Shown here: positions 12,821 to 53,938 of the stretch, piece by piece | Layout of the letters: every line of letters begins with the position of its first letter | How positions within the stretch are numbered: the first letter of the stretch is position 1 | NCBI GenBank assembly: GCA_040007395.1 | Contig: JBDTVG010000179.1 | Location: forward strand, 1 to 61,566 | Origin: Chloroflexota bacterium | Lineage (GTDB): Bacteria > Chloroflexota > Anaerolineae > Aggregatilineales > UBA2796 | Length of the DNA stretch: 61,566 nt | Direction: 5' to 3' | Notes under the pieces: model-generated | What the model saw: only the letters and a program-made list of their open reading frames with translations | Told to the model about the DNA's origin: nothing | Databases searched by the model: none | Program-made: the position numbers and the translations under genes

Positions 12821-12896
12821 GGGCCCATAGCTCAGCGGTTAGAGCAGCCGGCTCATAACCGGTCGGTCGCAGGTTCGAATCCTGCTGGGCCCACCA
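12821..12896 (+). tRNA. tRNA with CAT anticodon (elongator Met or Ile-lysidine), with encoded CCA.
   Basis: Acceptor GGGCCCA/TGGGCCC, anticodon loop CTCATAA, T-loop GGTTCGAATCCTG, 3-prime ACCA. Confidence 0.8.
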
Positions 12897-14581
12897 AACG
12901 GGAGCCAAATCGAACCAGCAGCACTCCTGCTGGTTTGGGTTTTCTGTCCACGGGATCCATTCAATCGGGGCTGCATCACGGGAACGTTATTTGACGATAA
13001 TTCGTGCAGATAACTAAAAGGTGTCCGCAGCTCCATCCTTAAGATTTTCCCCTCTGGGCTGATTACAACCCGCTTGACCATATGTCTCAGCAAGCGTTGT
13101 TGTCCTTGCTGATCCAACTTTTCAAATAGTATACCAGCTTTCGCAATCAGATTGAGTGCGTCATCTAGCGATGCAATATGTGCTCCACAATTCTGGTCAA
13201 TGGCAAGCAATGTTGACTGAATTGCGCTACGTTGATCCTGCCAACCTTTCCAAAGTGTATCCCACACTTCCTCCGAAAGTTTCCCCTTCGTATGAAGACG
13301 AGCAGCCGCAAGCTCTTCTTCGTCAAGACTCTTCAAGGCTTTCTCCAGCATTGACCGATCCGTGCCGTCAGGCTTATTCAAATAATGATCTACATCTGCG
13401 AGATAAACTTCACGAATCCTCGGTAGTAATTCAGTGTCTATTTGAATATTTCTCAAATGTCCAGAAATCTGCTTGTCTATTTGATGGCAAAGGAAATTGT
13501 GCTTGCTGCTGGCAATACAATAATAAGCGACACCTCCTCTAACCCGGTTTGCGTTAGATGTCGAGCAAGTAAGCTTGATTGGCTGATTGCCTCCGATTTG
13601 TATATAGACCAGAGTTTGCAACAAATAAAAGTGGCGTGGTCTATGTTCACGAACTTCGTTACGCCGATCCAGAATCGCTAAACCTGTCTCAAATTCCTCG
13701 GTCGAAACGACTGGTTCCCAATCTCCACGTACTGTTTTGGGTGGTATTGTTGCCCATTTATTTTCGACGACTACCCAACCTGCATAGAACCAGTTGTGAA
13801 AAATATCTGAGAGCTTGTTAGCAGCGGGAACACGTTTGCCATTCGCCTTGACCGCTACAAATGGACGACCAGAACGCATACAGTACCCTCTCGCGTGAAG
13901 CACTTCGCAAATTTCGGCGAGGGTATGTTTGTCTTCGAGAAGAAGGTCCCACGCTTCTCGCCAGACTTTGTATTGCACTGGATCAGCGGCGATCCAGCGT
14001 TTATATTTCGCGTGTTTTAGGCGCTCCTCACGTTGGAGGCCAGCTTTTTTCTTCTCCTTATTGACGTAACCATCTGGCGCTCTCCACGACCATCCACCTT
14101 CGATAAGTTTCGTATGCATCCCTTCTCGACAACGTTCGCCGATCCGATCGGACTCGAAACGAGCCATATTGAACAGCACACCAACGATCATACGACCATC
14201 AGACTTCGCAGGATCGAGACTTGGATAAGTAGCTATTCGGAGCGTGATCCCTAGGGCCATCAATTCATCAAACGCACGTAGACCCTCAACATCATTCCTC
14301 CCAAAGCGATCAACGAACGCAATTGCTACGTGAGAAAATTTGCCAAGGCGGGCATCGGCAAGCATTTGTTGATAGTATTTGCGACCGGTTGATTTACCAG
14401 TAAACGTGTCGGCATAGCGCCCGATGTAAGGCAACCCTGAACTATCAATGAGCCGTTCGTGGTTGAGGCGACTCTGGCTTGTTTGTGAACGTTCTGGCGC
14501 TTGTGCATCCTCATCGCTGGTACGTAGGTATTCGACCCAGCCGGGTGTCAAAGTCAATTGTTGAACTTTGCGCTTACTCAT
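12839..14581 (-). CDS. Large serine recombinase (resolvase catalytic domain plus recombinase and zinc-ribbon domains). The 3-prime end is antisense to tRNA-Met.
   Basis: N-terminal YLRTSDEDAQ catalytic-serine motif and the resolvase core (AIAFVDRFGRN...GITLRIAT...MIVGVLFNMARFESDRIGER). At 580 aa it is typical of large serine integrases. Confidence 0.85.
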   Translation of the reverse strand: MSKRKVQQLTLTPGWVEYLRTSDEDAQAPERSQTSQSRLNHERLIDSSGLPYIGRYADTFTGKSTGRKYYQQMLADARLGKFSHVAIAFVDRFGRNDVEGLRAFDELMALGITLRIATYPSLDPAKSDGRMIVGVLFNMARFESDRIGERCREGMHTKLIEGGWSWRAPDGYVNKEKKKAGLQREERLKHAKYKRWIAADPVQYKVWREAWDLLLEDKHTLAEICEVLHARGYCMRSGRPFVAVKANGKRVPAANKLSDIFHNWFYAGWVVVENKWATIPPKTVRGDWEPVVSTEEFETGLAILDRRNEVREHRPRHFYLLQTLVYIQIGGNQPIKLTCSTSNANRVRGGVAYYCIASSKHNFLCHQIDKQISGHLRNIQIDTELLPRIREVYLADVDHYLNKPDGTDRSMLEKALKSLDEEELAAARLHTKGKLSEEVWDTLWKGWQDQRSAIQSTLLAIDQNCGAHIASLDDALNLIAKAGILFEKLDQQGQQRLLRHMVKRVVISPEGKILRMELRTPFSYLHELSSNNVPVMQPRLNGSRGQKTQTSRSAAGSIWLPFGGPSRIRTCDRPVMSRLL

Positions 14582-14726
14582 GGCGTTCAGTGTTCCCTAT
14601 AATGCGACACGGAAATCTGTTTTAAACGCATCATGACTCCTGACCATCGCGGATACGTTGCAGCATTATAGGACGCATTCGCGATTTTGTGTTTTTAGGT
14701 CGTCACCCACACCTAGGAAGCCCAAT

Positions 14727-15506
14727 TTATGACTGCGCCTCACGGCGATTTGGCAACTCTGTGGCATCAACGAGCAACTGCCATGTAGCAAGAATGGTTC
14801 CTTTGACTTCTAACTTGATAGCTCTGTCTTCATTGAAGTGGCTCAGATAGTAAAGACGGCTCAAACCGGTCGGCACATCCTTTTCTGGCAGAATCTCGCC
14901 TAATATTGCCTTACCTACAGGGTGCTGCGTCACATGTAAAATATCATCGCTGGTGGGCGGTGTGTTGGGCAGCAACAAACCGAGGTGGAATTCGATACTC
15001 CGCAGCATTGCCTCTTCGGAAATCCCCCCCAACAGACGGGTGAGTAGTTGATCAGGCTTGATGAACCACAGCGAACGGTTGCCTCGCAGCTCGTGGGCCT
15101 GCTTCTGCCACTTGCGAATTTCCTGTCGATAATGCGGAAGCCCATTAGCTTTCTCGAAATCTTCGAGCGTGTCTAACAACCCATTTTGCTGATCCAGTGT
15201 CAGTTCTTCAAAACGTGCAGCGACATACTCACCCATTACGCCGATCTCACGGCGTGTGGTCGGCAAGTAACCCGCCAATGAAAACAGCCAAGTCGGATCG
15301 AGCCGCAGAAAATCCGCTACTGCAACCAACAACTTTGGGCTAGGAGCAGGGGCATCATCCTCTAGGCCGAAGCGCAGCATGTTTCGAATCGAGTTTTCGG
15401 CGACCCCTGCGGCTTGCGCCAGCTTTCCGGCACTAACGTCATTTTGTGCCATAACATAACTTAGAAATGTGCCGAGTGACTCAGTTTCGTGTCTCTGCAT
15501 CGCCAC
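14727..15506 (-). CDS. XRE-like helix-turn-helix domain protein with an uncharacterised C-terminal domain. A candidate regulator or directionality factor next to the recombinase.
   Basis: N-terminal HTH-like segment LSYVMAQNDVSAGKLAQAAGVAENSIRNMLRFG. Placed between the recombinase and the cargo. Confidence 0.5.
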   Translation of the reverse strand: MAMQRHETESLGTFLSYVMAQNDVSAGKLAQAAGVAENSIRNMLRFGLEDDAPAPSPKLLVAVADFLRLDPTWLFSLAGYLPTTRREIGVMGEYVAARFEELTLDQQNGLLDTLEDFEKANGLPHYRQEIRKWQKQAHELRGNRSLWFIKPDQLLTRLLGGISEEAMLRSIEFHLGLLLPNTPPTSDDILHVTQHPVGKAILGEILPEKDVPTGLSRLYYLSHFNEDRAIKLEVKGTILATWQLLVDATELPNRREAQS

Positions 15507-15523
15507 CTCGCTTTGAAATACGC

Positions 15524-15608
15524 AACAAATTGATGTATTTTATTAAAGCAAAATAAATCTATTTTGTCAATAAAAGCGAGTCGAAATAGAATATACATCA
15601 ATTTGTTG
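15524..15608. promoter_or_regulatory. Pair of perfect 16-bp inverted repeats (caacaaattgatgtat / atacatcaatttgttg) bracketing an AT-rich 53-bp spacer in a divergent intergenic region.
   Basis: Read directly from the sequence. Located between the HTH gene (minus) and the cargo genes (plus). Confidence 0.35.
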
Positions 15609-16031: not shown

Positions 16032-18770
16032 ATGACCTTCATGGACCAGTGGAGTGCAGAGCTTCCCGGCTCCCTCGCTGCCTGCCGCAAGGCGATTCAG
16101 GCGGCGGGCAAAAGCGCACAAGGTATCGATCCCAAATATGGTGTATTCGCCGCTGGACTGCTCTGGCCCGTGCGTGAGGCAGGCGCAGAAGATGACCAAC
16201 GCGAGGCCGTGCGCGAGATCTGCGGCGGCAAAGACGAGGCCAAACCGCTGCTGACTGCCATTCGCAATTGGTCGGATTATGTTGTGGCAGCGCGTGAACT
16301 TTCCGAGTCGACGAAGGGCAATCTACTGCTACAAATCGCGCTGGAAAAAGTGATCACACACTTTCAGGACGCGCTGGTTGCCGCCGAGTTCATGACCATC
16401 GACATTCGCGACAGCACCATACAGGGCGCGATTGTAAACATCGGCGGCAAGCAATATTTCTACGGCGATGTGGTGATCAATATCGTGCAAGAAGCAGTGA
16501 TGACCTGCCCACCACCCCCCGAAGACCCTGCCCAATTCGGCGGACGCGATACGGTATTGACCGATCTGTGCGATCAGCTTAAGCGTGGCGAGGTGACGGC
16601 GATCACGGCGGTGCATGGCTTGGGCGGGATCGGCAAAACGACACTGGCCCGCCGCCTCGCCAATGTGCTGCACCATGAAAAGACATTTCGGGCGGTGCTA
16701 TGGGCGAGTGTGACACGCAGCCCCGATCCGCTGAGTATTTTGCAGGTCTGGGCGAAGCACGGCAATCCTAACTATGCGCTGCCCGATGCCAAACCGGATC
16801 AGATCGCCTTGCAAGTCAAGGGATTGCTCGAAACCGCGATTGCCCAAACGTGCGAACACTGCGAACCGGATCGCGTGCTGGTGGTGCTGGATGATGTGTG
16901 GGATGACGCGGAGGGCAAAGGCAAAGCCGCCGCTCGACTGCTGCAAGCTGCCGCGCCGACTAACTCCACGATCTTGATCACGACCCGTTCGCAGAATCTG
17001 GCTATCGATCTGCACGCCAAACAGCCCTATGCGCTGGACCGCATGGCTGCCGAGGACGGGCTGGCGATGCTGCTGACCTATGACGATCTCAAAGGGCTGC
17101 CCCACGATCCCTTGAAGGCGCTGGTGATGGCGCTCGGTGGACACCCGCTGGCGCTCGATCTGGCAGTGCGGCGCGTTCAGAAGGCGGAAAATAAGGCCGA
17201 TGCGTTGACGGCGCATACTACGCTTTATCAGAAAGGATTGCTAGCAGGTGAAGGCTTCGGCGGACTGAAACTCGATCAGGGGCCAGATCGCGAAGACAAC
17301 CTGACGCTGGTGCTGTCGTACAGCTACGACGACCTGCCCGACCCCGATCAGGCGCATTTCCGGGCATTGGGGATGCTGCCGCCCGATGTGCCGTTTGACC
17401 GGACGATTCTGGCGGCGCTGTGGGAAGTCCCGCCTGAGGCAGTGATCGACTCGTGCGATACGCTGCGGCTGCTCTCGCTGCTCCAGCCCGATCCCGTTAG
17501 CGGGGAGGGTTGGTATCGCCAGCACCCGCTGCTGCGAAGCCGTGCGCTGGATCTGCTGAAAGGCGCGGCTGAGACGGACGCAGTATTCGCCCGCTACGCA
17601 GATCGGGTGATTGAGATTGCCGAGGGCTTTTATCGGCTGCCGCCGGAACAATGGGCCGAACTGTCGGCCTACCTACCGCATGTTCACGCTGTTGGCAGTG
17701 GCTTGGTCAAGGCGTTCAGCCCAGAGACACTGGATGATGCGCAATTGAGCCGCGCCCAACGCTTCGCCCTGAAGACCAGCCGCTATCTCGCCAACCGCCG
17801 CGAAGTGCACCAGATCGACTGGTTGGAGATGGGGCTAACTGCCAGCCGCCAGTTGCACGATGTGAAAAACGAATCCTATTTCTGTAACGATCTGGGTTTG
17901 GTCTACTCGGCGCTGGGGGAGAAGCGGCGGGCGCTGGACTTCTACGAGCAAGCCTTGCCGCTGTATCAGGCGGTGGGCGATCGCGGCGGGGAAGCCACCA
18001 CCCTCAACAACATTGGTTTGGTCTACTCCGCGCTGGGCGAGAAGCGGCGGGCGCTGGACTTCTACGAGCAAGCCTTGCCGCTGTATCAGGCGGTGGGCGA
18101 TCGCGGCGGGGAAGCCGTTACCTGTTTCAATATCGGCATGGTTTATCGCGCATTGGGCGATCTGGATCAGGCTATTGACTATGTAGCCCGCTGCGTTGAA
18201 CTCGATGAACAAGTCGAACACCCCGATCTGGAAAGTGATCGGCGGGCGTTGGAACAGTTGAAGCGCGAACGTGACGGTCAGCCGGAGCCGACAGTAGGCC
18301 AAACCCCAGAGGAAGTTATGAAAATGATAACTAACCTCTACCGCCAGCGTGGGCCGGACGCAGTACGCACGCTGCTCAAGCAGTCCGATGTAGCAGACGA
18401 AACTATCGAAGCGCTGCTCGCGCAGTTAGCCGCCGCTGGCACGCAGGCTGCGCCGAGTCAGCCTGTGCAGCCGCCCTCGACCCTGCCCGATGAAACGATC
18501 AATATGTTGGCAGGCAATACATTTGCCGTCAAAACCAGTGCGCCGGATAAGCTGGACAATTGGCGCACAAAATTGCAGAGTATCCGCGCCGATTTCGCTG
18601 CCAAAGGGGCCGACTGGCAGCTCGAAGTAGATTTTGTCGATGCGCTGCTGGCGGTGTTGGCGGATCAGCCCGCCGCGTTACCGGATGGCAACCCCTATCA
18701 ATCTGTTGTGCAGCAGGTGATCGCAGCCATTGAACAGTTTAGCAGTAATAGCAATCCACAAGGAGAATGA
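16032..18770 (+). CDS. STAND NTPase of the NB-ARC type with C-terminal TPR repeats and an N-terminal region of about 190 aa with no recognised fold.
   Basis: P-loop GLGGIGKTTLARRL, Walker B VLVVLDDVWD, NB-ARC-like GxP (GGHPLALDL), then repeated TPR units (LGLVYSALGEKRRALDFYEQALPLYQAVGDRGGEA). Confidence 0.85.
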   Translation: MTFMDQWSAELPGSLAACRKAIQAAGKSAQGIDPKYGVFAAGLLWPVREAGAEDDQREAVREICGGKDEAKPLLTAIRNWSDYVVAARELSESTKGNLLLQIALEKVITHFQDALVAAEFMTIDIRDSTIQGAIVNIGGKQYFYGDVVINIVQEAVMTCPPPPEDPAQFGGRDTVLTDLCDQLKRGEVTAITAVHGLGGIGKTTLARRLANVLHHEKTFRAVLWASVTRSPDPLSILQVWAKHGNPNYALPDAKPDQIALQVKGLLETAIAQTCEHCEPDRVLVVLDDVWDDAEGKGKAAARLLQAAAPTNSTILITTRSQNLAIDLHAKQPYALDRMAAEDGLAMLLTYDDLKGLPHDPLKALVMALGGHPLALDLAVRRVQKAENKADALTAHTTLYQKGLLAGEGFGGLKLDQGPDREDNLTLVLSYSYDDLPDPDQAHFRALGMLPPDVPFDRTILAALWEVPPEAVIDSCDTLRLLSLLQPDPVSGEGWYRQHPLLRSRALDLLKGAAETDAVFARYADRVIEIAEGFYRLPPEQWAELSAYLPHVHAVGSGLVKAFSPETLDDAQLSRAQRFALKTSRYLANRREVHQIDWLEMGLTASRQLHDVKNESYFCNDLGLVYSALGEKRRALDFYEQALPLYQAVGDRGGEATTLNNIGLVYSALGEKRRALDFYEQALPLYQAVGDRGGEAVTCFNIGMVYRALGDLDQAIDYVARCVELDEQVEHPDLESDRRALEQLKRERDGQPEPTVGQTPEEVMKMITNLYRQRGPDAVRTLLKQSDVADETIEALLAQLAAAGTQAAPSQPVQPPSTLPDETINMLAGNTFAVKTSAPDKLDNWRTKLQSIRADFAAKGADWQLEVDFVDALLAVLADQPAALPDGNPYQSVVQQVIAAIEQFSSNSNPQGE
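17881..18120 (+). repeat. Near-perfect tandem duplication (2 x about 120 bp) inside the STAND gene that duplicates one TPR unit.
   Basis: tggtctactc(g/c)gcgctggg(g/c)gagaagcggcgggcgctggacttctacgagcaagccttgccgctgtatcaggcggtgggcgatcgcggcggggaagcc appears twice in tandem. Confidence 0.8.
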
Positions 18771-18773
18771 ATC

Positions 18774-19193
18774 ATGTCCGACGACAAACCAACTATCAAT
18801 ATCAGTGGCAGTAACGTTCAGGGCGGGATCGTGGGAATTGGCGGGACGCAAAATTTTCAGCAAGCCGTGACCCTCACGCTCGGCAATCTCTCGTCCACCG
18901 TCGGTGCGCTGCAAGCCCCCGACCCAGACAAAGCCGAACTGCAAAAACTCATCGCTGAGCTGGAAGCCGCGCTCAAGAACGCACCCGCCGCTCATCAGGA
19001 CGATGCGAAAAAGATCGCTAAGCGTGCGAAAGAAGCCGTCGAGGAAGCTGCCGCCGATCACCCCGATAAGGATGGGGTCGAGGCGAAGGCCAATCTGCTC
19101 AAGAAGGCGGCGGAAAACGTCGCGGGCGCGATGCCGATTGTCCTGACGATTGCCACGAGTATCGTCGCGCATCTGCTCAAGTTGGGCATGTAA
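18774..19193 (+). CDS. Small protein (139 aa) with a C-terminal hydrophobic helix. Its N-terminal motif is shared with the upstream STAND protein. Candidate effector or adaptor.
   Basis: Starts 4 nt after the STAND stop. TINISGSNVQGGIVGIGGTQNFQQAV parallels STAND residues TIDIRDSTIQGAIVNIGGKQYFYGDV. The C-terminal MPIVLTIATSIVAHLLKLG looks like a TM helix. Confidence 0.5.
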   Translation: MSDDKPTINISGSNVQGGIVGIGGTQNFQQAVTLTLGNLSSTVGALQAPDPDKAELQKLIAELEAALKNAPAAHQDDAKKIAKRAKEAVEEAAADHPDKDGVEAKANLLKKAAENVAGAMPIVLTIATSIVAHLLKLGM

Positions 19194-19920
19194 GCACGCG
19201 GAGCATCGATTCTAAAATACAGATCAAATTTTGTTGGATGTGAGCGACTCGATGCAGATTTCACCGGCGCACGTCCTTTGCTTATCCGACAAGGTTGTTT
19301 TCTACGAATACTGCCGCGAATCTAACACGCCGCGCAGCCCTGTAAAGCGCAAGCGCTTCGCTGTGGATTTTTGCTTTGGCTTGTGCCGCTGCGCTCATGC
19401 AAAAATCCTTGCGCCCTGACGGGTACAAGACTGCTGAGATCGGCGTGTTGCAGGGAGGGCAGTATTGTAGAACAACCTGTCGATAAGAGGACATGCATAC
19501 GGTATCTGCACGAGCCGCAGAACGCCCGAAAGGGCACTGCCGAAGCAGGCTAACGGATTAAACGTTAGTGGATACCTGACGGTGCATGGCGCAATTGAGA
19601 CTGCATACTCACCCCGCTGCCGGAGGCGACCCTGCCTGCGGCAGTGTTGGCGTTTAGGACGGTCGTGAACTGTACAGCACACGCTGCTGTACGCCGGATC
19701 GGCCTCTGAATGGGCTTGTGCCGCAGATACAGCCACTGTATCAGCACAAGTCTTTGCACGTTCAGGCCACGCTCCAGACGAACCGGGTGAGATAGACCAA
19801 CCACGCAAGACAATCCTCTGCATCAAGCCGGACTCCCCTTTACCCGGCTGTTGCCCCCACGCGGTTGGTTGCTACTTTCAGAACATTTTGTTTTACAGCC
19901 TCTCGAAAGGAGTCTCCCCT

Positions 19921-20835
19921 ATGTCCACTGAAAGACCGCTCGTGTATAGCTGCCGTCAGTATCGTCTCCTTATCGCGGGCAGCCGCCAAGCAACTGAGGC
20001 CATGCTTCACGCTGCGTATAAAGCAGTTGTGCGGGCCAGAGCCAACGGCTGGGCCATTCACGTCGGCGACGCACAAGGGGTCGATGCGGCAGTCGTCGCG
20101 GCGTGCAATGAACTCGGTGTGAACTATGTGTGCTTCGGATTGGGCAGTGCTCCCCGCAATTCACAGGTTAGCGGCAGTGTCACCGGGCGCTACTGGCGAG
20201 TCGCGCCTGATAAGGCGAAAGACTACGCGGCACGGGATCGCGTCATGGTGGATTGCTCAGATCGCGGTCTGTTCATCTGGAACGGGCAGTCGAAAGGGAC
20301 GCTGGCAGGCCACACTTACATGCAGCAGTTGGGCAAACCGGTAGATCTGCTCACCTTTGGCGAGCAAGCGCAGGTCAAAGAGCAGGAAACCCAAGCGAAA
20401 TCACCTGACAAGCCATGTGTTCCTCACCCTGCCGTGGTCGAAGTTATCCTCGATACCACCCTCACGGACACTGCCCAGCAAGGCATCTTTGGCCTGCGGG
20501 CGCTAGATGCCACCGGGGCTGTCCTGTATCAGAAGCGCGTGGAAGTCGCGCATCTCGACACGACGACGGCTGACTATGCCAAACTGCAAGTGCTTATCAC
20601 GGCTCTGGACACGCTCAAAGGGCGACTGAAAGGCAGTGAGGCGGTCTACACCTTGCGCGTTGTGCAGTCCAGCAAAAATGTCGAGGGGTGGTTGGGTAAG
20701 CAGTTCAAGCGCAACATGCCGCAGGTCAAGGCACTGGGCAGCACCGCAGACGAGCTGCTGAAAGCATTTCCGTCTGTCGAGTGGGTCAAAATGCCCCGCG
20801 CCCAGATTGTGTCAGCTCTCTCAAAAATTCGCTAA
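19921..20835 (+). CDS. SLOG (DprA/LOG-like Rossmann) domain fused to a catalytically degenerate RNase H-like domain.
   Basis: SD aaggag 10 nt upstream. LIAGSR...GWAIHVGDAQGVDAAVVAA matches the DprA/SLOG signature (GSR...SGxAxGxD). The C-terminal half aligns to RNase HI (TTTADYAKLQVLITALDTLK against TTNNRMELMAAIVALEALK; VEGWLGKQFKRN against ITQWIHNWKKRG), but the E and two D catalytic positions are replaced. Confidence 0.55.
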   Translation: MSTERPLVYSCRQYRLLIAGSRQATEAMLHAAYKAVVRARANGWAIHVGDAQGVDAAVVAACNELGVNYVCFGLGSAPRNSQVSGSVTGRYWRVAPDKAKDYAARDRVMVDCSDRGLFIWNGQSKGTLAGHTYMQQLGKPVDLLTFGEQAQVKEQETQAKSPDKPCVPHPAVVEVILDTTLTDTAQQGIFGLRALDATGAVLYQKRVEVAHLDTTTADYAKLQVLITALDTLKGRLKGSEAVYTLRVVQSSKNVEGWLGKQFKRNMPQVKALGSTADELLKAFPSVEWVKMPRAQIVSALSKIR

Positions 20836-20968
20836 ACCCCTGGGCAGGTATTCATTCCAGATAGACGACCTTATCGGTCGTTTTTTGTTTCCAGCCAAAA
20901 GCAAAGGCGACTGCTATGAACAGTCGCCCTTGGCTTGCAAAACTTTGCAATTTGATGTGGAGGAAAGT

Positions 20969-34448: not shown

Positions 34449-34826
34449 ATGAACCATGACATACTCCATCGGCTTCGTACTATCTGCCTTGCCTTACCCG
34501 AAACAATAGAACAAAACGAGGGGAGTGTCGGCAAGCCTGTCTTCAAAGTGCGGAATAAAATTTTCGCCATGCAACATCTTATGGAGGATCGCCCGTCGCT
34601 GTGGTGTAAATCGACTCTGAGCTTTCAGGAGATGCTCGTCAGTTCCGAACCCGAACGCTATTTTGTCCCGCCCTATGTAGGGCATCACGGCTGGATTGGG
34701 ATATGGCTTGACGTTGACCTTGACTGGGGGTTTATCGGACATCTGGTGGAGGAAAGCTACCGCAAGACGGCTCCGAAGAAGCTTTCAGCGGGTATTGGAC
34801 AAAACAAGAGACAGGCCACTGGATAA
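34449..34826 (+). CDS. MmcQ/YjbR-family small DNA-binding-like protein.
   Basis: VRNKIFAM...YFVPPYVGHHGWIGIWLD matches the YjbR pattern. Confidence 0.55.
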   Translation: MNHDILHRLRTICLALPETIEQNEGSVGKPVFKVRNKIFAMQHLMEDRPSLWCKSTLSFQEMLVSSEPERYFVPPYVGHHGWIGIWLDVDLDWGFIGHLVEESYRKTAPKKLSAGIGQNKRQATG

Positions 34827-34846
34827 ACAGTGACGCTGTTGCTTGC

Positions 34847-36121
34847 TTACCGCTCATAATCCTGTGCTTTTAGGCCCGTCGTCGAAACCGTGCGAAGTTC
34901 ATTATACGCATGAACAAGGCTGAAATTATCGTCGTTCATGTGCTGACGTTGCTCCGGAGGCATGGCGTTCCATTCACCGTTGAGACGGTTGCCTTGAGCC
35001 TGCTTTGTTAGCCAGTGGACGGTCTTTTCAACATCGCGATTGTGGCCTGACATCAAGTAGCCCCGCTTGTTGAGAGTTTGCCCCAACTCGTGCGTGTAGT
35101 CCTCAGCGCGTTCCTTTGCCTTCGGGTTAAAGTGAGCAACTTCCAGCATGGCACTGTTATCTTGCTGACTCACGAACGCAGCGGCAGCATACCCAATTCG
35201 TGTCCGACCATCCGGCGAAATAATGGGCAGAAGCTTGAGCGTGACCCTTTGCCGATCCGAAGGGAGTCTCAGTTGGTTAGCCGTATGGTTAATGGCATGG
35301 TCGCCTTGTTCCCACGCTGCATTTCGTTCAGGGCTGAGTGGCTTCCATAAGCCAGATAAGCCATTTTCTCTAGCCTCATCAGTCAACAGTTTCACAGTCT
35401 CCTGAATATCCTCAGCACGCCCTATCGTCACACGTTTATCCTGCCTCAGACTCACCAGCAAATGATCGGCATATTTTTCAGCCTGTGTTTGTTCATCAGG
35501 CGCAAAGTGGCCTATTTCCATCAGACGGCGCTGCTGTGCCTGAGTGACAAGCGCTGCTGTCGCAAAGCCGACAGGCGTTTTCCCATTCGGCGAGATCACT
35601 GGGACCACTCCAACCTGAACTTGCTGTCGGGCTGGATTATCGGGCGCTAACCACAGTTTTCCCGTATGGGGATCGATTTCGCCACCCCGCTCAAAAGGCA
35701 TAGCATGGACGGCGGCAACCTTTTCTAGGACATCGACTGCAATATGGCGATGACAAAAGGTGCTAGGTGAGCAGTAGCAGGTCAGCGTCACCTGTTCCCC
35801 TTGCAGCAGATCCAGAAAGGGCTGCTTGTCTCGCGCATATCTATCTCGCAACAGCCCTAAATACTGCGTCGTATAGGCCTCGTCGGTGAGCGGCGTTGTT
35901 GGTCGGCCTGTCACTTTATCAATTTTCCAGCGATCTATTTCTATCTGATTCTGACTCTGCATCGCTTCATACAACTTATGTCCAGCAACGAGCGGCCAAG
36001 TAGGAGCCAGAACGCTGCCTCGACCTTGCTGACCGGATTGCACCGTTGTATTAATACGCGTATTCTGAGAGTTCGTTTTATCATCGTCTCTGGTCAAGCG
36101 ACTGGTAAACACTTGGACCAT
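34847..36121 (-). CDS. Protein with an N-terminal DUF4326-like Cys/His motif (LTCYCSPSTFCHRHI) and an internally duplicated C-terminal domain of about 110 aa.
   Basis: VVPVISPNGKTPVGFATAALVTQAQQRRLMEIGHFAPDEQTQAEKYADHL repeats as LLPIISPDGRTRIGYAAAAFVSQQDNSAMLEVAHFNPKAKERAEDYTHEL. Confidence 0.45.
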   Translation of the reverse strand: MVQVFTSRLTRDDDKTNSQNTRINTTVQSGQQGRGSVLAPTWPLVAGHKLYEAMQSQNQIEIDRWKIDKVTGRPTTPLTDEAYTTQYLGLLRDRYARDKQPFLDLLQGEQVTLTCYCSPSTFCHRHIAVDVLEKVAAVHAMPFERGGEIDPHTGKLWLAPDNPARQQVQVGVVPVISPNGKTPVGFATAALVTQAQQRRLMEIGHFAPDEQTQAEKYADHLLVSLRQDKRVTIGRAEDIQETVKLLTDEARENGLSGLWKPLSPERNAAWEQGDHAINHTANQLRLPSDRQRVTLKLLPIISPDGRTRIGYAAAAFVSQQDNSAMLEVAHFNPKAKERAEDYTHELGQTLNKRGYLMSGHNRDVEKTVHWLTKQAQGNRLNGEWNAMPPEQRQHMNDDNFSLVHAYNELRTVSTTGLKAQDYER

Positions 36122-36489
36122 CAGAATCGCCCTTTATCAAGCGTTATCTCGACCAGTGGGATTACCAGAGAATCCAACTTAGCCGCAGCCTGACGAAAAG
36201 CAGCTTCGTCCAAGACGAAGGGCTGCCAGTCACTATGGGATGTAGGCAAAGGAATAAGCATGGGCTGACGAGGGGCGTAAATGGCTTCGGTTGCCATATC
36301 AAAGATGATATCTACTGGCAGCTCATCTGGCGTTCGACTTGTGATCTGGTAGACGAGCTGCCAAATCATTGTCCCCATGACAGCATAAGCAAGCTGCCGA
36401 TACTCATCGGTAACTAGGTCGTATTGAATCAGCCACGCATAGAAAAGCTGGGTTGTTCGCCCGTATGCCTCTATCCAATCCACAAGCAT
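36121..36489 (-). CDS. Hypothetical protein (about 122 aa).
   Basis: SD gggagg before the ATG at 36489. Stop adjacent to the start of the next gene. Confidence 0.35.
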   Translation of the reverse strand: MLVDWIEAYGRTTQLFYAWLIQYDLVTDEYRQLAYAVMGTMIWQLVYQITSRTPDELPVDIIFDMATEAIYAPRQPMLIPLPTSHSDWQPFVLDEAAFRQAAAKLDSLVIPLVEITLDKGRF

Positions 36490-36673
36490 GGAGCCTCCCT
36501 TCACTTCAATGGTCGGTAATGATTGTGCGATTAAGGCGTGGAGCCGACAAAACCTATCAGGTCAGGCAGTGGTCAGAAATGGCACTAAAAATCAATGTAG
36601 GCTCTATAACTTGTACTCCAACGCGGGTCGCCATTGAATATTGTTTTGCCAAGTTAGTGAGTTATCCACCGCT

Positions 36674-36942
36674 TCCAGCGGCCGCGCCGCTGGCCATGGT
36701 CGCCATCGAGGCGACCATACGATGTTGCATTGCAACATCGCTACTCACCGCGCCCGTCCGGTGTCACCTCAGGGGTGACGGACGCGGGAGTAGCCAGCTA
36801 AAGCTGGCCCCCGTCGCTGCGCTCTGGGGGAGTACGGTGCGCTCTACCGCGCACCGTGCAGGGCAAGTCGCCGACTTGCCCTGCATCGTCGTTGCCTCAT
36901 CAGGCAACGACACAACACCCTGCCGCTGGCGCGACAGGTGTT
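36674..36942. other. Cluster of seven or more consecutive perfect hairpins in about 270 bp. Candidate origin of transfer (oriT), single-strand origin, or structured RNA, located about 300 bp upstream of the relaxase module.
   Basis: Palindromes ccagcggccgcgccgctgg, gatgttgcattgcaacatc, ccggtgtcacc/ggtgacgg, gccagctaaagctggc, gtacggtgcgc/gcgcaccgtgc, gcagggcaagtcg/cgacttgccctgc, gtcgttgcc/ggcaacgac and caacacc/ggtgttg. Confidence 0.4.
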
Positions 36943-37260
36943 GATATAAGACAGCCTGTAAGGTGCTTTGCTTGGTCATCGCCTGACGAGGCTATCACAG
37001 ACTACCTTATGCCGTTGTGACCCGATCTAAGCAAATGGGTCTCTTGGCAGCGTTTGTAGCGTATGGCAAAGGGCCGCCAGTGGCGGTTGAAAGGCACATC
37101 CAGCGAGTCGCCAAGCGGCACATTTCACAACGTGTCAAGAATCTATCGGGTCAGGTTGTGGTCAGAATTGGGACTAAAGCTAGCGAGGGGCTGCGGGCAA
37201 GAGAGCCGTACACCTATATACTTTTGGACCATAGGGTAATGGTAAACAAGGTTCGATCCG

Positions 37261-37716
37261 ATGTCCAAACGCCGGATATTTACTATTCAGCACACCGCCT
37301 ACTTCAGTACCGAGATGTGGGCGCTGCTTCAACAACTTGCCAACCATCGAGGCAATGGCTGTACTGAAAATGACCTTATCCGTGAAGCAGTGCGCGGTCT
37401 GATCGATAATGAAAGTGGCATCATTGGCAGTCGCCGTCACTTCCAAAAATCCCTTCAAGAGCGTGTTGAGGCGCTTGAAACGACTCTTTCAATGGCCTCA
37501 GAACAATCCACGCATTTAATCGTGTTTTATCTGAATATCATCATTCAACTACTCGCCTTTGGCTTGGCTCACCTCATTTCACTGTTGAGCAAGCATCAGA
37601 TTTCTCCACAACAGCTTATTCAGAGAGCTGTCATCGAAGCCCGAAAAGAAGAACGGGTCTTTGCCGAACAAGTCCAAGCAGTTCGAGCGATGGACATTCC
37701 TGAGAAGTCCTCATGA
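37261..37716 (+). CDS. Putative relaxosome accessory protein (about 150 aa). Its stop overlaps the relaxase start.
   Basis: Position and ATGA coupling to the relaxase. N-terminal region compatible with a small DNA-binding fold. Inference. Confidence 0.35.
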   Translation: MSKRRIFTIQHTAYFSTEMWALLQQLANHRGNGCTENDLIREAVRGLIDNESGIIGSRRHFQKSLQERVEALETTLSMASEQSTHLIVFYLNIIIQLLAFGLAHLISLLSKHQISPQQLIQRAVIEARKEERVFAEQVQAVRAMDIPEKSS

Positions 37717-38450
37717 GCAAAGCGACCATTGTCTTCGATCTGGCTTTCTCATCTTGGAAAGGACAGCGTGGATCTGGCTCGACTGGCTATACCGAGCTAA
37801 AAGCCCGTTTGAAATACTTTCAATATCGAAATGATCGCAATGGGCATATCCCGCAAGAAGAAGGCTTGGAACGCTGGACAGATCGCGGCTTGGGGCCGAG
37901 TTGGGGCGACATCTTGAGCAATTGTCAAGCGCTTGGTTCGGAGAAAGTGTTGGCGTGGACGCTCGTGGTCAGCCCCGCCCCAGACTTGATGGCGCTCGTA
38001 CCGGAAGGGCAGCGTCCTGAGCTAGTCAAGTCTATCACGGAGCAGATTGTCGAGACCTATTACACCGAACGTGGTGTCGAGGTACCTGAATACTCCTACG
38101 TGTTACATGACCGACTTACGAACGGCAGCCAAAACGGTGGTGACAGAATACAGCAACTGCATACCCATGTGGTGCTGCCAGGCACGGTTCCCGTTGTCGA
38201 AGGAGGGCGCGAACCCTTCTATAACCGCAGTCGCAAAGGCCATTTTGAGCAGCTTCGAGACATTACCAACACGACCTTTGCAACGGCATTGGACAAGCGC
38301 ATCGGCCCTGAGTGGCGAAATTTAAGAGTGCCTGAAAGACCCCTGCTCGAACCAATCGTCCCCCTACCTGAAATTAGCGACGCTGATGGGCGCAGTGTTT
38401 CTGAACTGGATCGTTGGTTCCCGCGTCCCCCTACGCGGGAGATAGAGTAG
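37713..38450 (+). CDS. Small relaxase/mobilisation nuclease (MobA/VirD2-like, MOBP/Q-type).
   Basis: Motif I-like segment with Tyr (SSWKGQRGSGSTGYTELKARLKYFQYR) and a histidine-triad-like motif (IQQLHTHVVLPG). Confidence 0.55.
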   Translation: MSKATIVFDLAFSSWKGQRGSGSTGYTELKARLKYFQYRNDRNGHIPQEEGLERWTDRGLGPSWGDILSNCQALGSEKVLAWTLVVSPAPDLMALVPEGQRPELVKSITEQIVETYYTERGVEVPEYSYVLHDRLTNGSQNGGDRIQQLHTHVVLPGTVPVVEGGREPFYNRSRKGHFEQLRDITNTTFATALDKRIGPEWRNLRVPERPLLEPIVPLPEISDADGRSVSELDRWFPRPPTREIE

Positions 38451-38461
38451 AAGGCGCTTAT

Positions 38462-38704
38462 ATGTGGCATAAATTGCATGACACGCTCAAAGGCTATGTC
38501 CCGTTGATGATCGGCGCAGGGACAATTATCTTGGTTATCGATAGCATCGTTTTCTTTTTGCATCGTCTTTTAGGCCTCGACAAGGGGACAGCGTTCTACT
38601 TGGCTGTTCTACTGCTCTGCTGTATCGCCTATCTGGCGCTTTATCACCAAGCTTATCACCCTCAACCAGACGAGGCAGATTCCGAAACATCACAAGACCG
38701 CTAG
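38462..38704 (+). CDS. Small two-TM membrane protein (about 80 aa) between the relaxase and the coupling protein.
   Basis: SD agaaggcg before the ATG. Two hydrophobic helices (LMIGAGTIILVIDSIVFFL; AFYLAVLLLCCIAYLALY). Confidence 0.35.
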   Translation: MWHKLHDTLKGYVPLMIGAGTIILVIDSIVFFLHRLLGLDKGTAFYLAVLLLCCIAYLALYHQAYHPQPDEADSETSQDR

Positions 38705-38739
38705 CGTCGGATCGCGGTGTAGAAGGGAGTCATTCTACG

Positions 38740-40917
38740 ATGTTCTTCTGGCTGTTCACGGAAGGTCGAGCACTGGTATCCGGCCTGCTTTGTCCACTCA
38801 GCGTTTTGGCGGTGTTGATTCCAGTCGCGGTGACATTCATTTTAGGGGTGGGTATTCAACGCCGTGCCGAAGGTACACCACTCAGTACCAACGGTTGGTT
38901 ATCGTTGGCTAAATGGGTGGCTTTTATTGCGTCTACTATTGGCGCAGCGTCGCTCTATATCTCGCTGCTTGGTGGACTGGCCGTTCAGCGAGCGACAGTT
39001 CACCAAAAGCCATGGGTCGGGTTGCTCAGCGCATTGGTCGGTGGACCTATGACGATCAACCAGCCACGCCTGCTCATCATGGGGAGTGGCTTGTGGATTA
39101 CCCTGCTGTTCTTGAATATGGCGCTCTGGCAAGGGTTGCGGAATGGCGGTTGGTTGCGTGAGTGGATCGACACCCTGCGCCGTCCTAGCCAGCAGCGGGG
39201 CGAAATGGGATCGGCCCATCTGTGTACGCGCCGGGAATATCGCCGTTATCGCCGCGTTGACCCGGAAGGAATCACCTTTTTGGGTGCGTACTGGGGCGAA
39301 CGCAACCTACGTCTCGATGTGGGCTGGGGTCGTTTTTGTCTGAGTAGTGAAGATGCCGCAAGGGGTGTTTTAACGCTTGGTTCGCCCGGTTCAGGGAAAA
39401 CGCAGGCCGTCATTTTACCTGTGATTGCTGACCGAATGCTGGCAGGACACAGCCTGATTGTGGCTGATCCGCAAGGTGAATTGACCCCGCATGTGATGCG
39501 CTTTGCCAAACGAACACACCATTTGGTCGTAGTGCATGATCCCACCAGTCGCGATGGCCCACGCTACAACCTCGCCGCCGGCCTCACCACTATTCCTGCG
39601 GCGGCTGCTATTGCTAAGGTGTTGATCCCCGGTACCCAAGGTGACAATAAATTTTGGTCCGACGCTGCCACCGATCTGCTCTCCGCTTGCTTGATTCGCT
39701 TTGACAACCTCGGTGAGATAAAAGCCGCGTTGGATGATCCCATGACGCTGTCGAAAAAGCTGACCGAGCCACGCGATGACGCAACGCTGGCCGCCAGCGC
39801 TTTCATTGCCAGCGTATCGAGCGATGGCAAAGTCGCGTCCAATACGATTGCGACCCTCGGCACAGCCTTGACGGGCTGGGCCTCTGCCGAAGTCCGCAAG
39901 AATACGAGCGTCTCTGATTTCAATGCGGATTTGATCGTATCGCAAAAGACGATTGTGGTCCTGACCTGCCCCGGTGAGATGCGGGAAGTGTATGCGCCGT
40001 ATCTTGGCGCAACCCTGCGTAAATTGATGCGGGACTTGGATCGCATCGGGGAACAGAATAAAGATCCGCGTCAACCCGGAGCGCTGCCTGTGCCAGTCGG
40101 CATCATCCTCGATGAATTTCCCACACTGGGGCGACTCGATTCGCTTGTGTCTGACGTGAACCTCGTGCGAAAACGAAGGATAAGTATTCTCATTGGTGCC
40201 CAGACCAAAGGCCAATTTCACCTGATCTATGGCGACGAGGCGACCAAAGCACTCTTAACCGGCTTGGCGACGCAAATCGTTTATGGGGCGTGTGACCATG
40301 ACACCGCCGAGTTTTACAGCAAAGCTTCTGGGACTGCCACCGTTGATACCGATCCCGATCCACATAAAGCCAGCCTGCGGCAGCGGCCCTTACTTACTGC
40401 TGATGAAATCGTTAATCCACAGCACGGTAACTGCACGATCTTTTCGCGTTTTGTAGAAGCTAACCATGCACTGCAAGTTATCTTTCAGGCCGAGCTAACC
40501 CGGCTGTACGAACGCGAAGATTGGCAGGAGCATCTGGCAGCTTCGCAAAATAACGAACCCATGATCTTAAAACGTGGCATTTGCCTGACGTTGCCTACTG
40601 TGGCACAATCTGAGGCAGTATCGAGCTTCTCACCACCACCAACGACCTTATCCTCTCCACCGCCTGCATCCCAACATGCTATGCAGACCACAACCGCACA
40701 GCGTTTGAGTCAACCCAGCGCAGATGAGTTGGATGCTATTTTTGGGTCCTCTGAAACCGATTTAGCGATGGTTGAACAGTTGCAGAAAGTGCGACAGCAG
40801 CGTGAAATAGCCAATCACACAAATGTGTTACAGGCGGCAGGTATCATAACGACTACCGTAGACACGTTTAAGAGCAATCTGCATGGAACAGGAGCGCAGA
40901 AAAATGACCTCGACTGA
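38740..40917 (+). CDS. Type IV coupling protein (VirD4/TraG/TraD family).
   Basis: N-terminal TM helices, Walker A GSPGSGKTQ, the T4CP DPKGE motif as DPQGEL, and Walker B ILDEFPTLG. Confidence 0.85.
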   Translation: MFFWLFTEGRALVSGLLCPLSVLAVLIPVAVTFILGVGIQRRAEGTPLSTNGWLSLAKWVAFIASTIGAASLYISLLGGLAVQRATVHQKPWVGLLSALVGGPMTINQPRLLIMGSGLWITLLFLNMALWQGLRNGGWLREWIDTLRRPSQQRGEMGSAHLCTRREYRRYRRVDPEGITFLGAYWGERNLRLDVGWGRFCLSSEDAARGVLTLGSPGSGKTQAVILPVIADRMLAGHSLIVADPQGELTPHVMRFAKRTHHLVVVHDPTSRDGPRYNLAAGLTTIPAAAAIAKVLIPGTQGDNKFWSDAATDLLSACLIRFDNLGEIKAALDDPMTLSKKLTEPRDDATLAASAFIASVSSDGKVASNTIATLGTALTGWASAEVRKNTSVSDFNADLIVSQKTIVVLTCPGEMREVYAPYLGATLRKLMRDLDRIGEQNKDPRQPGALPVPVGIILDEFPTLGRLDSLVSDVNLVRKRRISILIGAQTKGQFHLIYGDEATKALLTGLATQIVYGACDHDTAEFYSKASGTATVDTDPDPHKASLRQRPLLTADEIVNPQHGNCTIFSRFVEANHALQVIFQAELTRLYEREDWQEHLAASQNNEPMILKRGICLTLPTVAQSEAVSSFSPPPTTLSSPPPASQHAMQTTTAQRLSQPSADELDAIFGSSETDLAMVEQLQKVRQQREIANHTNVLQAAGIITTTVDTFKSNLHGTGAQKNDLD

Positions 40918-41212
40918 GCGTCCAGCCCTGACAAAAAGACGCATGGTGCAGTTAATCCATTATCGCACTCGGCTTACCCACAAACAGGTCACCAACGTAC
41001 TGGAAGCGTTCATCGAGTTGGTCAGTCAGGAAATTGCCACAGAAGGGCGTGTGGAGCTAGAAAACTTCCTGACGCTCGATGTAAAAACGGTGAAACATCG
41101 CAGTCCTTACGGGAGTGCGGTGATTGCTTATAAGGCAGTCCGCTGCCGACCCGGACGACGGTTGCGTGCAATGCTGCGTGAAAACCCGCCAGGAAACCAT
41201 AAACGACGGTAA
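40904..41212 (+). CDS. HU/IHF-family DNA-bending protein.
   Basis: LTKRRMVQLI...KQVTNVLEAF...GRVELENFLTLDVKTVKHRSPYGSAVIAYKAVRCRPGRRLR matches the HU/IHF arm and body. The ATG at 40904 is preceded by caggagcg. Confidence 0.7.
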   Translation: MTSTERPALTKRRMVQLIHYRTRLTHKQVTNVLEAFIELVSQEIATEGRVELENFLTLDVKTVKHRSPYGSAVIAYKAVRCRPGRRLRAMLRENPPGNHKRR

Positions 41213-41227: not shown

Positions 41228-41947
41228 ATGCGTGTGGTAATCGTGGATGACAATGAGGTCGCTCAGAATTTTGCCATCAAGATCTTGTGCAGCCATCAGA
41301 TTGATGTTCTTGCGTTCAGCAATTCTATTGAAGCGCTGAATTATTTGACCACCCATGAGCCTGATGCGGTCTTGATCGATTACATGCTACCCGGTGGGCC
41401 TGACGGCCTTAAACTGGCGGCGCAGGTTCGCCGCCTCTATCCGGCGTGCATCATTATTATGATAAGCGCCTACGCCCAGATAGAGGATGTGGTGGAGGCC
41501 ATGCGGATTGGTTGTGACGATTTCTTATTCAAGAAAAATCTTCAGCCAGAGGAATTGTTAAACCGGATCGGCAGTGCGGTGATGCAGCGGAAGGCGTGGT
41601 TCCCCGCCCCGACTCCGACGCGCTTATCAGACGGGGAAATGTACCTCGACGTGGAAGCCTATCGGGCGGTCTGGTACGGCGCGGAGTTGACCCTCACCCC
41701 AACGCAATTCAATGTGCTGATTCAATTACTCTCGAAGCCTGGTCATATTTTTAATTATGGCGAACTGTATGCGCGGTGTACGGGAATACGGCTGGCTCCC
41801 GGTGAGGCACGCTCCAAACTTAAAACGCACATTATCAACTTACGCCAGAAACTCGAACAGGAGGAGCATCCCCGCACCATCTGGAATGTGCGCGGTGCTG
41901 GCTATAAATGGGAAATCCGCAGTGAGCCGTTGCCAGATGATGGCTGA
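41228..41947 (+). CDS. OmpR-family response regulator (REC plus winged-helix trans_reg_C).
   Basis: REC domain with D at IVDDN/LIDY. C-terminal LTPTQFNVLIQLLSKPGHIFNYGELY...IWNVRGAGYKW. Confidence 0.8.
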   Translation: MRVVIVDDNEVAQNFAIKILCSHQIDVLAFSNSIEALNYLTTHEPDAVLIDYMLPGGPDGLKLAAQVRRLYPACIIIMISAYAQIEDVVEAMRIGCDDFLFKKNLQPEELLNRIGSAVMQRKAWFPAPTPTRLSDGEMYLDVEAYRAVWYGAELTLTPTQFNVLIQLLSKPGHIFNYGELYARCTGIRLAPGEARSKLKTHIINLRQKLEQEEHPRTIWNVRGAGYKWEIRSEPLPDDG

Positions 41948-41982
41948 TGGCGGACAGACATAATGATGAGTACTCGCAAAAC

Positions 41983-42345
41983 ATGAAAATACTGTACATT
42001 GAGGACAATCCGACGGCCGTCAAAAATGTCCAACGGCTGGCGGCCCTGATAGGCTGTGAGTGCTTAGTGGCAGTCACGGGAGCGCAGGGTCTAGCCTTAC
42101 TCGATGACCGCCCGGATATCGTCTTGACCGATATGGAGTTACCGGATTATGACGGCATTCCCCTTATCCGCGAAATCCGGTCAAGGGGTTCCACCGTTCC
42201 AATTATTGCTATCACGGGTTTTGCGTTGGTGGGTGAACGTGAGCAGTGTTTCGAGGCAGGCTGCAACGAGTATCTGCGTAAACCCTATGAGCTATCCGCG
42301 TTGATGGACTTACTCAGGCGTTACGGACCCGCCACCAGCAGTTAA
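41983..42345 (+). CDS. Single-domain CheY-like response regulator (the six-frame ORF begins at 41947).
   Basis: MKILYIEDNP...DIVLTDMELPDYDG...K motifs of REC domains. Confidence 0.7.
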   Translation: MKILYIEDNPTAVKNVQRLAALIGCECLVAVTGAQGLALLDDRPDIVLTDMELPDYDGIPLIREIRSRGSTVPIIAITGFALVGEREQCFEAGCNEYLRKPYELSALMDLLRRYGPATSS

Positions 42346-42641
42346 TATCTTCTGTAGTCATGATTTGTACCTTTCTTTAGCTTCGATATCTAAAGTTTGG
42401 CACTTTTCATGGCTATTTCAACCCGCACCATTGGTTATTATAACTCGACACCAAAAGTGTTTTCCGAGCCTTGACCCGCTCGAAGGAGGTATGGACCAGC
42501 CGATGAGCCTCAATCGCTATGGCCGGGTGCAAGGCAATATCGTCAATAGAGTCGATTCAAGTGGATTAATTATGGGAATATCATCCTATTGTTAAATGTA
42601 ATTTTTGTGCAAATAGATACACTAAGATTTAACCAAACTAC

Positions 42642-42670
42642 TTGACAACTTGTGAGCGCCTAGTTATTAT
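42642..42670 (+). promoter_or_regulatory. Sigma70-like promoter (TTGACA-17 nt-TATTAT) in the AT-rich region upstream of the giant RHS gene.
   Basis: Hexamers read directly from the sequence with a 17-nt spacer. No experimental support. Confidence 0.35.
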
Positions 42671-42824
42671 CCCCTAAACAAAGACATTTCCCATTCAAAA
42701 AAGCTTCTCTGTTATACACGGGAAAGGGCTTGAGCTATTATGTTCCTCAGGCGCTGCTAGTTCCCCTACTAGTCAAAGTTGCTTTTTCATCTAATTCTGA
42801 ACACTTACCTTGAGAAGGCTACTC

Positions 42825-53936: not shown

Positions 53937-53938
53937 AA

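Follow-up and report, generated by a model that had tools for sequence, protein, structure and literature searches.

We analysed a complete contig of a Chloroflexota metagenome-assembled genome (MAG), 61566 nt in length and referred to below as the window, in which a mobile element adjoins a tRNA-Met gene. The element is probably one copy of an undescribed Chloroflexota family of integrative and conjugative elements (ICEs): it spans at least 48.7 kb and continues beyond the contig on the right, with intact modules for integration and DNA processing and a truncated mating operon. An earlier sequence-only reading of the same DNA had proposed an element of about 28 kb, inserted at tRNA-Met by a serine recombinase and equipped with a relaxase, a type IV coupling protein (T4CP) and HU, which was taken as mobilizable in view of a missing type IV secretion system (T4SS). 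The insertion site, the integrase and the DNA-processing genes of that reading are borne out below, whereas its extent and its classification are revised. Comparisons were made with related loci from metagenomes and genomes, numbered L006, L009 etc., and with the ERZ28593685 element. Feature coordinates are collected in Table 1.

The left 12.6 kb of the window are host-like, with genes for an FG-GAP protein, a desaturase, tRNA-Phe, an SPFH protein, two Na+/H+ exchangers, OtsA/OtsB and a PA14 protein. A tRNA-Pro/Gly/Met cluster closes this flank, tRNA-Met being the final gene as called by ARAGORN. The recombinase gene adjoins it directly, and the final 18 recombinase codons run antisense to the tRNA. 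The encoded protein has the N-terminal Resolvase domain with its serine motif and the Recombinase domain that define a large serine recombinase, and the motifs YxRTS and RFGRxD (YLRTS and RFGRND) are kept in the recombinase alignment; 571 homologues of the protein were found. The conserved part of the protein stops near 12998, and the remaining tail is encoded by a hairpin and the antisense tRNA; called recombinase open reading frames (ORFs) of the tRNA-end clade likewise read through the conserved hairpin and the antisense tRNA. A site-specific integrase thus stands at the element end together with its attachment site, the 3' end of tRNA-Met, as in an ICE.

The 3' end of the recombinase gene overlaps a tRNA gene in nine loci, in which eight tRNA species are occupied: Met (window), Arg(tct) (L013 and L100), Ala (L015), Lys(ctt) (L035), Lys(ttt) (L042), Val (L057), Arg(ccg) (L068) and Gln (L018). 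At L018 the recombinase gene is present but uncalled, and its tRNA-Gln, first taken as a control, turned out to be the ninth junction. Every one of the nine junctions carries the inverted pair GTTCG-N33-CGAAC with a spacing of exactly 33 nt (GTTCA once), a pattern that was not seen at four control tRNAs without a recombinase alongside. The symmetry centre of the pair is the base after the discriminator, in the window position 12894 (tRNA C74). Because the spacing is exact in nine of nine cases and the four controls lack the pattern, the left junction is, on the evidence of this geometry, at a fixed place, the tRNA 3' end. The enzyme may read the T-arm as a half-site and cut at the discriminator/CCA or a few bases from it. 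Past CGAAC lie a terminator-like hairpin (12913-12935) and a T-run, and the hairpin is kept in L013, L015 and L100. No direct repeat of the tRNA 3' end occurs anywhere in the window, as the first reading had noted; such an absence is expected for a serine integrase and is explained by the place of the junction at the tRNA 3' end.

Gene order ties the integrase to the rest of the element. In L100, where a recombinase 63% identical to that of the window lies at tRNA-Arg, the order recombinase, SLOG-like, NERD-like, o214 and DUF6094 is the same as in the window, and the SLOG-like, NERD-like and o214 products are 52%, 55% and 41% identical to their counterparts. The recombinase and the methyltransferase side are therefore parts of one element. 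Relative to the backbone, the integrase cassette is inverted when compared with the arrangement of the ERZ28593685, L035, L057 and L018 type. The closest recombinase homologue is that of L013 (9022-11659, 69% identity), located with tRNA-Arg(ccg) on one side and tRNA-Arg(tct) on the other; its 5' flank holds host-like genes for sugar transport, and this copy may be solitary or degenerate. The possible helix-turn-helix (HTH) regulator adjoining the integrase in the window has no homologue among the related loci.

Large serine integrases such as phiC31, Bxb1, A118, TndX and CcrAB resemble the window enzyme in their Resolvase and Recombinase domains, their catalytic motifs, their position at the element edge and the lack of long repeats. 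The known examples target protein-coding or intergenic sites, whereas the clade of the window enzyme was found on tRNA 3' ends in nine of nine cases. According to Mageeney et al. (PMC7192596), no serine integrase had been reported to use a t(m)RNA gene, and such use was predicted for just 14 of 297 elements. Prochlorococcus elements include a few with a large serine recombinase (10.1101/2020.12.28.424599).

The second intact module is the mobilization (MOB) cassette, which comprises an accessory protein, a relaxase, a small membrane protein, a T4CP and HU. This order is common to six loci (window, L006, L009, L011, L012 and L016), with an accessory protein of ~146 aa. The giant methyltransferase-SNF2 gene, recognized in the earlier reading and matched here by the DUF6094 Pfam model, and the primase-like gene that follows it are kept upstream of the cassette in L006, L009 and L011. 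The latter gene, called a PrimPol in the earlier reading, has a weak RepB-primase match and keeps its place beside the methyltransferase in relatives.

The 245-aa relaxase (ABI947_19345) has no match in Pfam or NCBIfam, and ten distant family members likewise have no Pfam domain. Its assignment comes from structure. The AlphaFold model has a predicted local distance difference test (pLDDT) score of 84.5, and its top 22 PDB matches are all conjugative relaxases (E 1e-5 to 2e-2), including MobA, TraI of pCU1 and pKM101, TrwC, NES, F TraI and MobM. In the family alignment, H132 and the H150xH152 pair within 'QLHTHVVLPG' are invariant and Y35 is near-invariant; the relaxase profile touches TrwC precisely at the HxH motif (E 0.3). 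The model therefore shows the HUH fold, the three-His site and a Tyr (Y35, assigned by conservation alone) that characterize MOBF and MOBQ relaxases, and the sequence matches none of the corresponding Pfam models (TrwC, Relaxase, MobA_MobL). Judged by its modelled fold, the protein is a relaxase outside every curated family, and the earlier call is upheld, with fold matches to relaxases only and an invariant His triad. All 231 homologues are unannotated and, where named, come from Chloroflexota or Anaerolineae; a set of 1.84 billion proteins yields ~220 clusters of the family at a 50% identity level, and no homologue was found among PLSDB plasmids. The likeness to MobA (R1162, MOBQ) and to TrwC/TraI (MOBF) covers the predicted fold (Foldseek E 1e-5 to 5e-4, probability 1.0), the three-His metal site with a segment like MOBF motif III, and the conserved N-terminal Tyr. 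In contrast to them, the window relaxase shares 11-15% identity, is ~240 aa long without a helicase or primase domain, and belongs to a small closed family. A second relaxase paralogue, P0034 (ABI947_23025, 57% identical), is encoded on a 90996-nt contig of the same MAG, which suggests a second related element that could serve as a helper.

The T4CP, also identified earlier along with HU and confirmed by Pfam, scores 117.7 bits against a cut-off of 20.1 for T4SS-DNA_transf, has Walker A (GSPGSGKT) and Walker B (ILDEF) motifs and carries N-terminal membrane helices. Its best NCBIfam match is the CD1115 family (6e-36). The window hence encodes both the relaxase and the coupling protein of an ICE. 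The non-coding stretch upstream of the cassette is a candidate origin of transfer (oriT), with perfect palindromes of 14 nt and 10 nt at 36857-36911; aligned with the corresponding gaps of relatives, it shows patchy similarity.

The contig ends with two genes on the minus strand that encode a 460-aa single-pass membrane protein (o460) and a polytopic membrane protein (o561, ABI947_19410). Homologues of both occur in L015, L017 and L018 and as a gene pair within the ERZ28593685 element, where a single scaffold holds a recombinase/tRNA-Ala junction and, at a distance of at least 36 kb, a MOB cassette. A metagenome scan with the o460/o561 family yielded 80 loci. In ~20 long loci, all from Chloroflexota, the pair lies within a mating cluster of fixed order: a LuxR-type regulator, a second regulator, a 401-aa protein, a 267-aa protein, a polytopic 850-aa protein (o561 type), a 445-aa protein (o460 type), an 81-aa protein, a 157-aa protein, a 703-aa protein, a 73-aa protein, a topoisomerase and two more proteins. 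In complete relatives both regulators are of the LuxR type, and the three products encoded between them and the o460-type gene are membrane or secreted proteins. Six of these loci, and L018 in addition, also carry a recombinase on a tRNA.

Two of the cluster products point to a secretion channel. The 81-aa protein of the relatives matches the TrbC/VirB2 pilin (1e-4), and the 703-aa protein has Walker motifs and matches only the VirB4, TraC, TrbE and CD1110 models of NCBIfam, at best with 1.8e-8. This VirB4 homologue (703-712 aa) is 74-88% identical among loci (L017, L018 and L024-L089; for example L018 6148-22402). By these matches and its gene order, the Chloroflexota mating cluster is a divergent T4SS that standard models overlook, and synteny would assign a mating role to the o460/o561 pair. 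Given the VirB4-like ATPase and the pilin of the complete relatives, a T4SS is the family's normal route of transfer. Two further observations concern these loci. L017 additionally has genes for a DnaG-type primase, a DUF3987 protein and an actin-like ParM, and o460 shows a weak Sortase-domain match (E 0.002, residues 260-328) past its single membrane helix.

The window copy of this operon is incomplete. The pilin-to-topoisomerase block of ~9 kb was not detected in the window by tblastn or by hidden Markov models (HMMs) built from relatives, and the VirB4-type ATPase of an ICE had no match on the contig by tblastn and an HMM from 17 relatives. The earlier statement that no VirB4-, pilin- or VirB6-like gene occurs in the 12.8-42.8 kb interval is thereby extended to HMMs from the relatives' own mating genes. 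In the ~20 loci that extend far enough downstream, the pilin-to-ATPase block lies downstream of o460, either directly or past a few kb of inserted cargo, the exception being L042, where 8.6 kb of other genes follow o460 before the locus ends; several loci carry variable cargo at this place behind o460. In place of the block, the window has a kinase-like gene, a GNAT gene, a GAF kinase, an RHS tip, an RHS/PD40 gene, an RHS remnant and two response regulators. From left to right the window has the methyltransferase, the MOB cassette and HU and then, in the opposite orientation, the mating operon; the ERZ28593685 and L012 elements are colinear with this layout.

Because the last two genes of the contig belong to the conserved mating cluster, the element reaches at least position 61566, which makes it at least 48.7 kb long, and its right end (attR) is off the contig. 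The previously estimated ~28 kb is accordingly not supported. The right junction had been sought at 42.35-42.8 kb; that stretch holds an RHS core-end remnant and a strong promoter-like site for the RHS gene, and the regulators past HU are kept in relatives with 41-59% identity, the OmpR-type one in L006, L009 and L011 and the second in L006 and L011. The idea of a dedicated mobilizable element without a T4SS likewise gives way, as the family encodes a divergent T4SS of which the window keeps the proximal operon part; the copy looks like a truncated ICE.

The same data were weighed against a compact integrative and mobilizable element (IME) of ~29.5 kb, which would extend from tRNA-Met to ~42.4 kb and would never have had channel genes, with the RHS genes and kinases as host DNA and the contig-end genes as an unrelated element or remnant. 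The 12.8-42.4 kb interval does contain an integrase, a relaxase and a T4CP and no channel genes. G+C falls from 0.52-0.57 to 0.42-0.47 at 43-48 kb, the RHS remnant at 42480-42595 would be a rearrangement point, and no mating genes lie within 7-10 kb past HU in L006, L009 and L011. We nevertheless consider such an element unlikely. Two unrelated elements would have to mimic by chance an order that is colinear with ERZ28593685 and L012, and the genes assigned to the host under this scheme occur within the family: the histidine kinase HK658 shares 42% identity, along its entire sequence, with a GAF kinase of L006 that sits a few kb beyond the HU-RR-RR genes (RR, response regulator), and RHS genes are cargo within the related elements L012 and L074. 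A search for attR by similarity to the inverted P' arm gave 8/17 at best, which is chance level, and no P-arm-like sequence near 42.4-42.8 kb.

Since the contig ends inside the mating cluster, leaving part of the element unseen, the window copy might still be a complete, self-transmissible ICE, with the pilin, VirB4-like ATPase and topoisomerase genes placed beyond the contig end through rearrangement. The integrase cassette, already inverted relative to the ERZ28593685, L035, L057 and L018 type, is in line with this. The downstream side of o460, where the block lies in the ~20 loci apart from L042, is fully visible in the window without it, and we regard a complete ICE as very unlikely. Many Chloroflexota are filamentous, and transfer without a channel, in which the coupling protein with its N-terminal membrane helices and other membrane proteins would move DNA between cells of such a host like the FtsK-like TraB of Streptomyces, would suit an intact relaxase and a contig without VirB4; it is hardly credible, as the complete relatives have a VirB4-like ATPase and a pilin beside the same genes and a TraB-like mechanism is without evidence. 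A prophage origin was rejected: neither the recombinase nor the T4CP had relatives in IMG/VR, whether single sequences or an alignment served as the query, and no Pfam phage structural domains are present.

Several points weigh against a truncated ICE. Neither attR nor an empty site nor a circular junction was found; the genome collection holds no close relative of the host, one scan for the empty-site comparison returning OtsA relatives of only 40-46% identity and the exact-protein match for it returning none. The VirB4 and VirB2 assignments consist of below-cut-off matches plus gene order, the VirB4-like profile had no match among PDB sequences, and the model of the polytopic protein (pLDDT 57) is too poor for comparison with a VirB6-like fold. 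The contig stops within the mating operon, and the missing genes could lie elsewhere through rearrangement. Host DNA could make up the stretch from 42.4 to 57.7 kb, flanked by two distinct element remnants, and a misassembly of the MAG at the repetitive RHS locus is possible.

For a truncated ICE we propose the following mode of action. The large serine recombinase inserted the element where tRNA-Met ends on its 3' side; the crossover would fall on the discriminator/CCA or a few bases from it, with the T-arm and acceptor end of the tRNA as one half-site. Such an insertion keeps the tRNA intact and creates no long direct repeat. The accessory protein and the HUH relaxase, which stands alone, would nick oriT, whose probable place is the upstream gap of 750 bp; the VirD4-type coupling protein and HU would be the remaining parts of the relaxosome. 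Conserved establishment functions are ascribed to the DprA/SLOG-like block, the methyltransferase-SNF2 giant and the archaeo-eukaryotic primase (AEP). In complete relatives the conserved operon would supply the channel. The window copy appears to retain the proximal operon genes only, the block being gone from its canonical place between o460 and HU. It is probably unable to build its own channel, but could still excise and, with the help of a complete relative, be mobilised in trans.

Compared with ICEs of monoderm bacteria (Tn916, ICEBs1 and the conjugative transposons (CTn) of C. difficile, with mating-pair formation (MPF) systems MPF-FA/FATA), the Chloroflexota elements share an integrase at the end, a relaxase with a VirD4-like coupling protein and cargo hot spots, and the relatives have a VirB4-like ATPase with small pilin-like and membrane proteins. 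They differ in that the relaxase falls in no Pfam or NCBIfam family, the VirB4-like ATPase stays far below every family cut-off, with 28-33 bits where 590 are required, no family is detectable for the remaining mating proteins, and integration relies on a large serine recombinase that targets tRNA 3' ends; the window copy, moreover, is without the ATPase/pilin block. IMEs that encode a relaxase and a T4CP (PMC5704250) resemble the window element in having an integrase, a relaxase, a coupling protein and an incomplete channel, for which a helper T4SS is expected. Unlike them, the window element is at least 49 kb long, carries part of its own mating operon and has undefined ends.

We tentatively extend these findings to a Chloroflexota-wide, undescribed conjugative family, with a T4SS missed by standard models, a relaxase outside curated MOB models and serine integrases that would use the universally conserved tRNA T-loop GTTCG as a half-site and cut at the discriminator/CCA in at least eight tRNA genes. 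The window copy would then be an ICE-to-IME intermediate in which the pilin/ATPase/topoisomerase block was replaced by an RHS toxin locus and sensor kinases, illustrating how an ICE decays into a mobilisable element by swapping channel genes for cargo. A full-text literature search found no paper describing an ICE or a T4SS from Chloroflexota, and conjugation in this phylum is essentially uncharted. The collected loci offer a testable parts list for a Chloroflexota conjugation system and explain why such genomes come out of standard annotation with 'no T4SS'. Serine integrases that are directed to one fixed position in many tRNA genes would be mechanistically new, and could be useful tools, given a short, universal and conserved attB in every genome.

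Table 1. Features of the element and its junction in the window.
Feature	Position	Strand	Basis or remark
tRNA-Met(CAT)	12821-12896	+	ARAGORN, Rfam; integration target (B half-site); T-loop GTTCG at 12873-12877
Putative attL	12873-12944	+	GTTCG (12873-12877), 33 nt, element-side CGAAC (12911-12915), then hairpin and T-run
Large serine recombinase (integrase), 580 aa	12839-14581	-	Pfam Resolvase 4e-20, Recombinase 2e-5
Possible HTH regulator adjoining integrase	14727-15506	-	weak HTH_3 match, E 0.088
NB-ARC + TPR STAND NTPase	16032-18770	+	Pfam; PADLOC match to TPR part only; cargo
DUF4404-like protein	18774-19193	+	Pfam; cargo
Backbone block: DprA/SLOG-like, NERD-like, o214	19888-22630	+	synteny with L100
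DprA/SLOG-like protein	19888-20835	+	Pfam DNA_processg_A 7e-5
PRTRC-like ubiquitin-type cassette	23162-26368	+	Pfam Prok_Ub, Prok-E2_D, ThiF
Ubiquitin-like (Ub-like) protein of cassette	23162-23452	+
Protein of cassette, 334 aa, unknown		+
E2-like protein of cassette	24721-25617	+
ThiF/E1 protein of cassette	25574-26368	+
MOSC-domain gene	26361-27014	-	Pfam MOSC 1e-31
563-aa ORF, unknown	27150-28841	+	no match in Pfam/NCBIfam searches
DUF6094 methyltransferase-SNF2/helicase giant	28838-33310	+	Pfam
AEP-type primase-like protein ('PrimPol')	33498-34421	+	weak RepB_primase match, E 0.023
YjbR (+), 424-aa DUF488-N3a repeat protein (-), 127-aa ORF (-)	34449-36504		Pfam
Non-coding stretch, candidate oriT	36505-37260	+	upstream of MOB cassette
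MOB cassette	37261-41212	+	151-aa accessory protein, relaxase, small membrane protein, T4CP, HU
HUH relaxase, 245 aa	37713-38450	+	AlphaFold fold match
Small membrane protein	38414-38704	+
VirD4-type T4CP	38740-40917	+	T4SS-DNA_transf 8e-34, TrwB_AAD_bind, TraG-D_C
HU	40883-41212	+	Pfam
OmpR-type response regulator (RR239) and single-domain response regulator (RR132)	41228-42345	+	Pfam
RHS toxin locus	42480-54795	+	Pfam; cargo
RHS core-end remnant	42480-42595	+	of a different RHS
RHS/PD40 protein, 3708 aa	42810-53936	+	PD40 beta-propeller repeats, Thr/Pro-rich linkers
Small ORF in RHS locus	53894-54262	+
Orphan RHS tip	54334-54795	+	DNA 90% identical to 52671-52970 (repeat D1)
Seven-transmembrane (7TM)-GAF histidine kinase, 658 aa (HK658)	54920-56896	-	Pfam
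GNAT	56910-57548	-	Pfam
Short HisKA/HATPase protein	57764-58471	-	Pfam; overlaps o460 stop codon by 4 nt
o460, single-pass membrane protein	58468-59850	-	homologues in relatives, hydropathy
o561, polytopic membrane protein	59847-61566	-	cut by contig end; NCBI 'partial'

The interval 12.8-42.8 kb had been credited with an unusual concentration of conflict systems. The STAND, SLOG and E1/E2 genes named in support are indeed present; the SLOG-like, NERD-like and o214 genes belong to the conserved backbone, however, and the E1/E2 trio is PRTRC-like. Among the supposed conflict systems only the STAND protein looks like plain cargo, and its gene and the DUF4404-like gene (16032-19193) are not in L100. 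An anti-phage role of the E1/E2 genes was discarded, as the PADLOC matches are weak and cover the E1 core only, and the PRTRC models fit better. The best NCBIfam matches of the trio are PRTRC_ThiF, PRTRC_B and PRTRC_C, each below its cut-off (114 vs 145, 48 vs 131 and 20 vs 46 bits), which leaves the cassette outside PRTRC proper, and no ParB-related, A, E or F component of PRTRC was detected. As in the PRTRC systems of plasmids and ICEs, Ub-like, E2-like and ThiF genes stand in a row in the window, but with subthreshold scores, and the cassette is not in the closest relative, L100.

After the Ub-like gene, at 23507-23822, lie five to six copies of a palindromic 17-mer, GGAAGCnTTATGnTTCC, which occur nowhere else in the window (0.11 copies expected by chance); they look like operator, iteron or centromere-type sites. 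Further along, the 424-aa repeat protein is 43% identical to the products of same-position genes in L006 and L011. In L100, a group II intron reverse transcriptase (RVT_1, GIIM, HNH) at 1-2835 adjoins a shortened DUF6094 methyltransferase gene. Within the STAND gene, the part for the TPR region contains a 120-nt tandem duplication at 17886-18125, whose copies are 90% identical.

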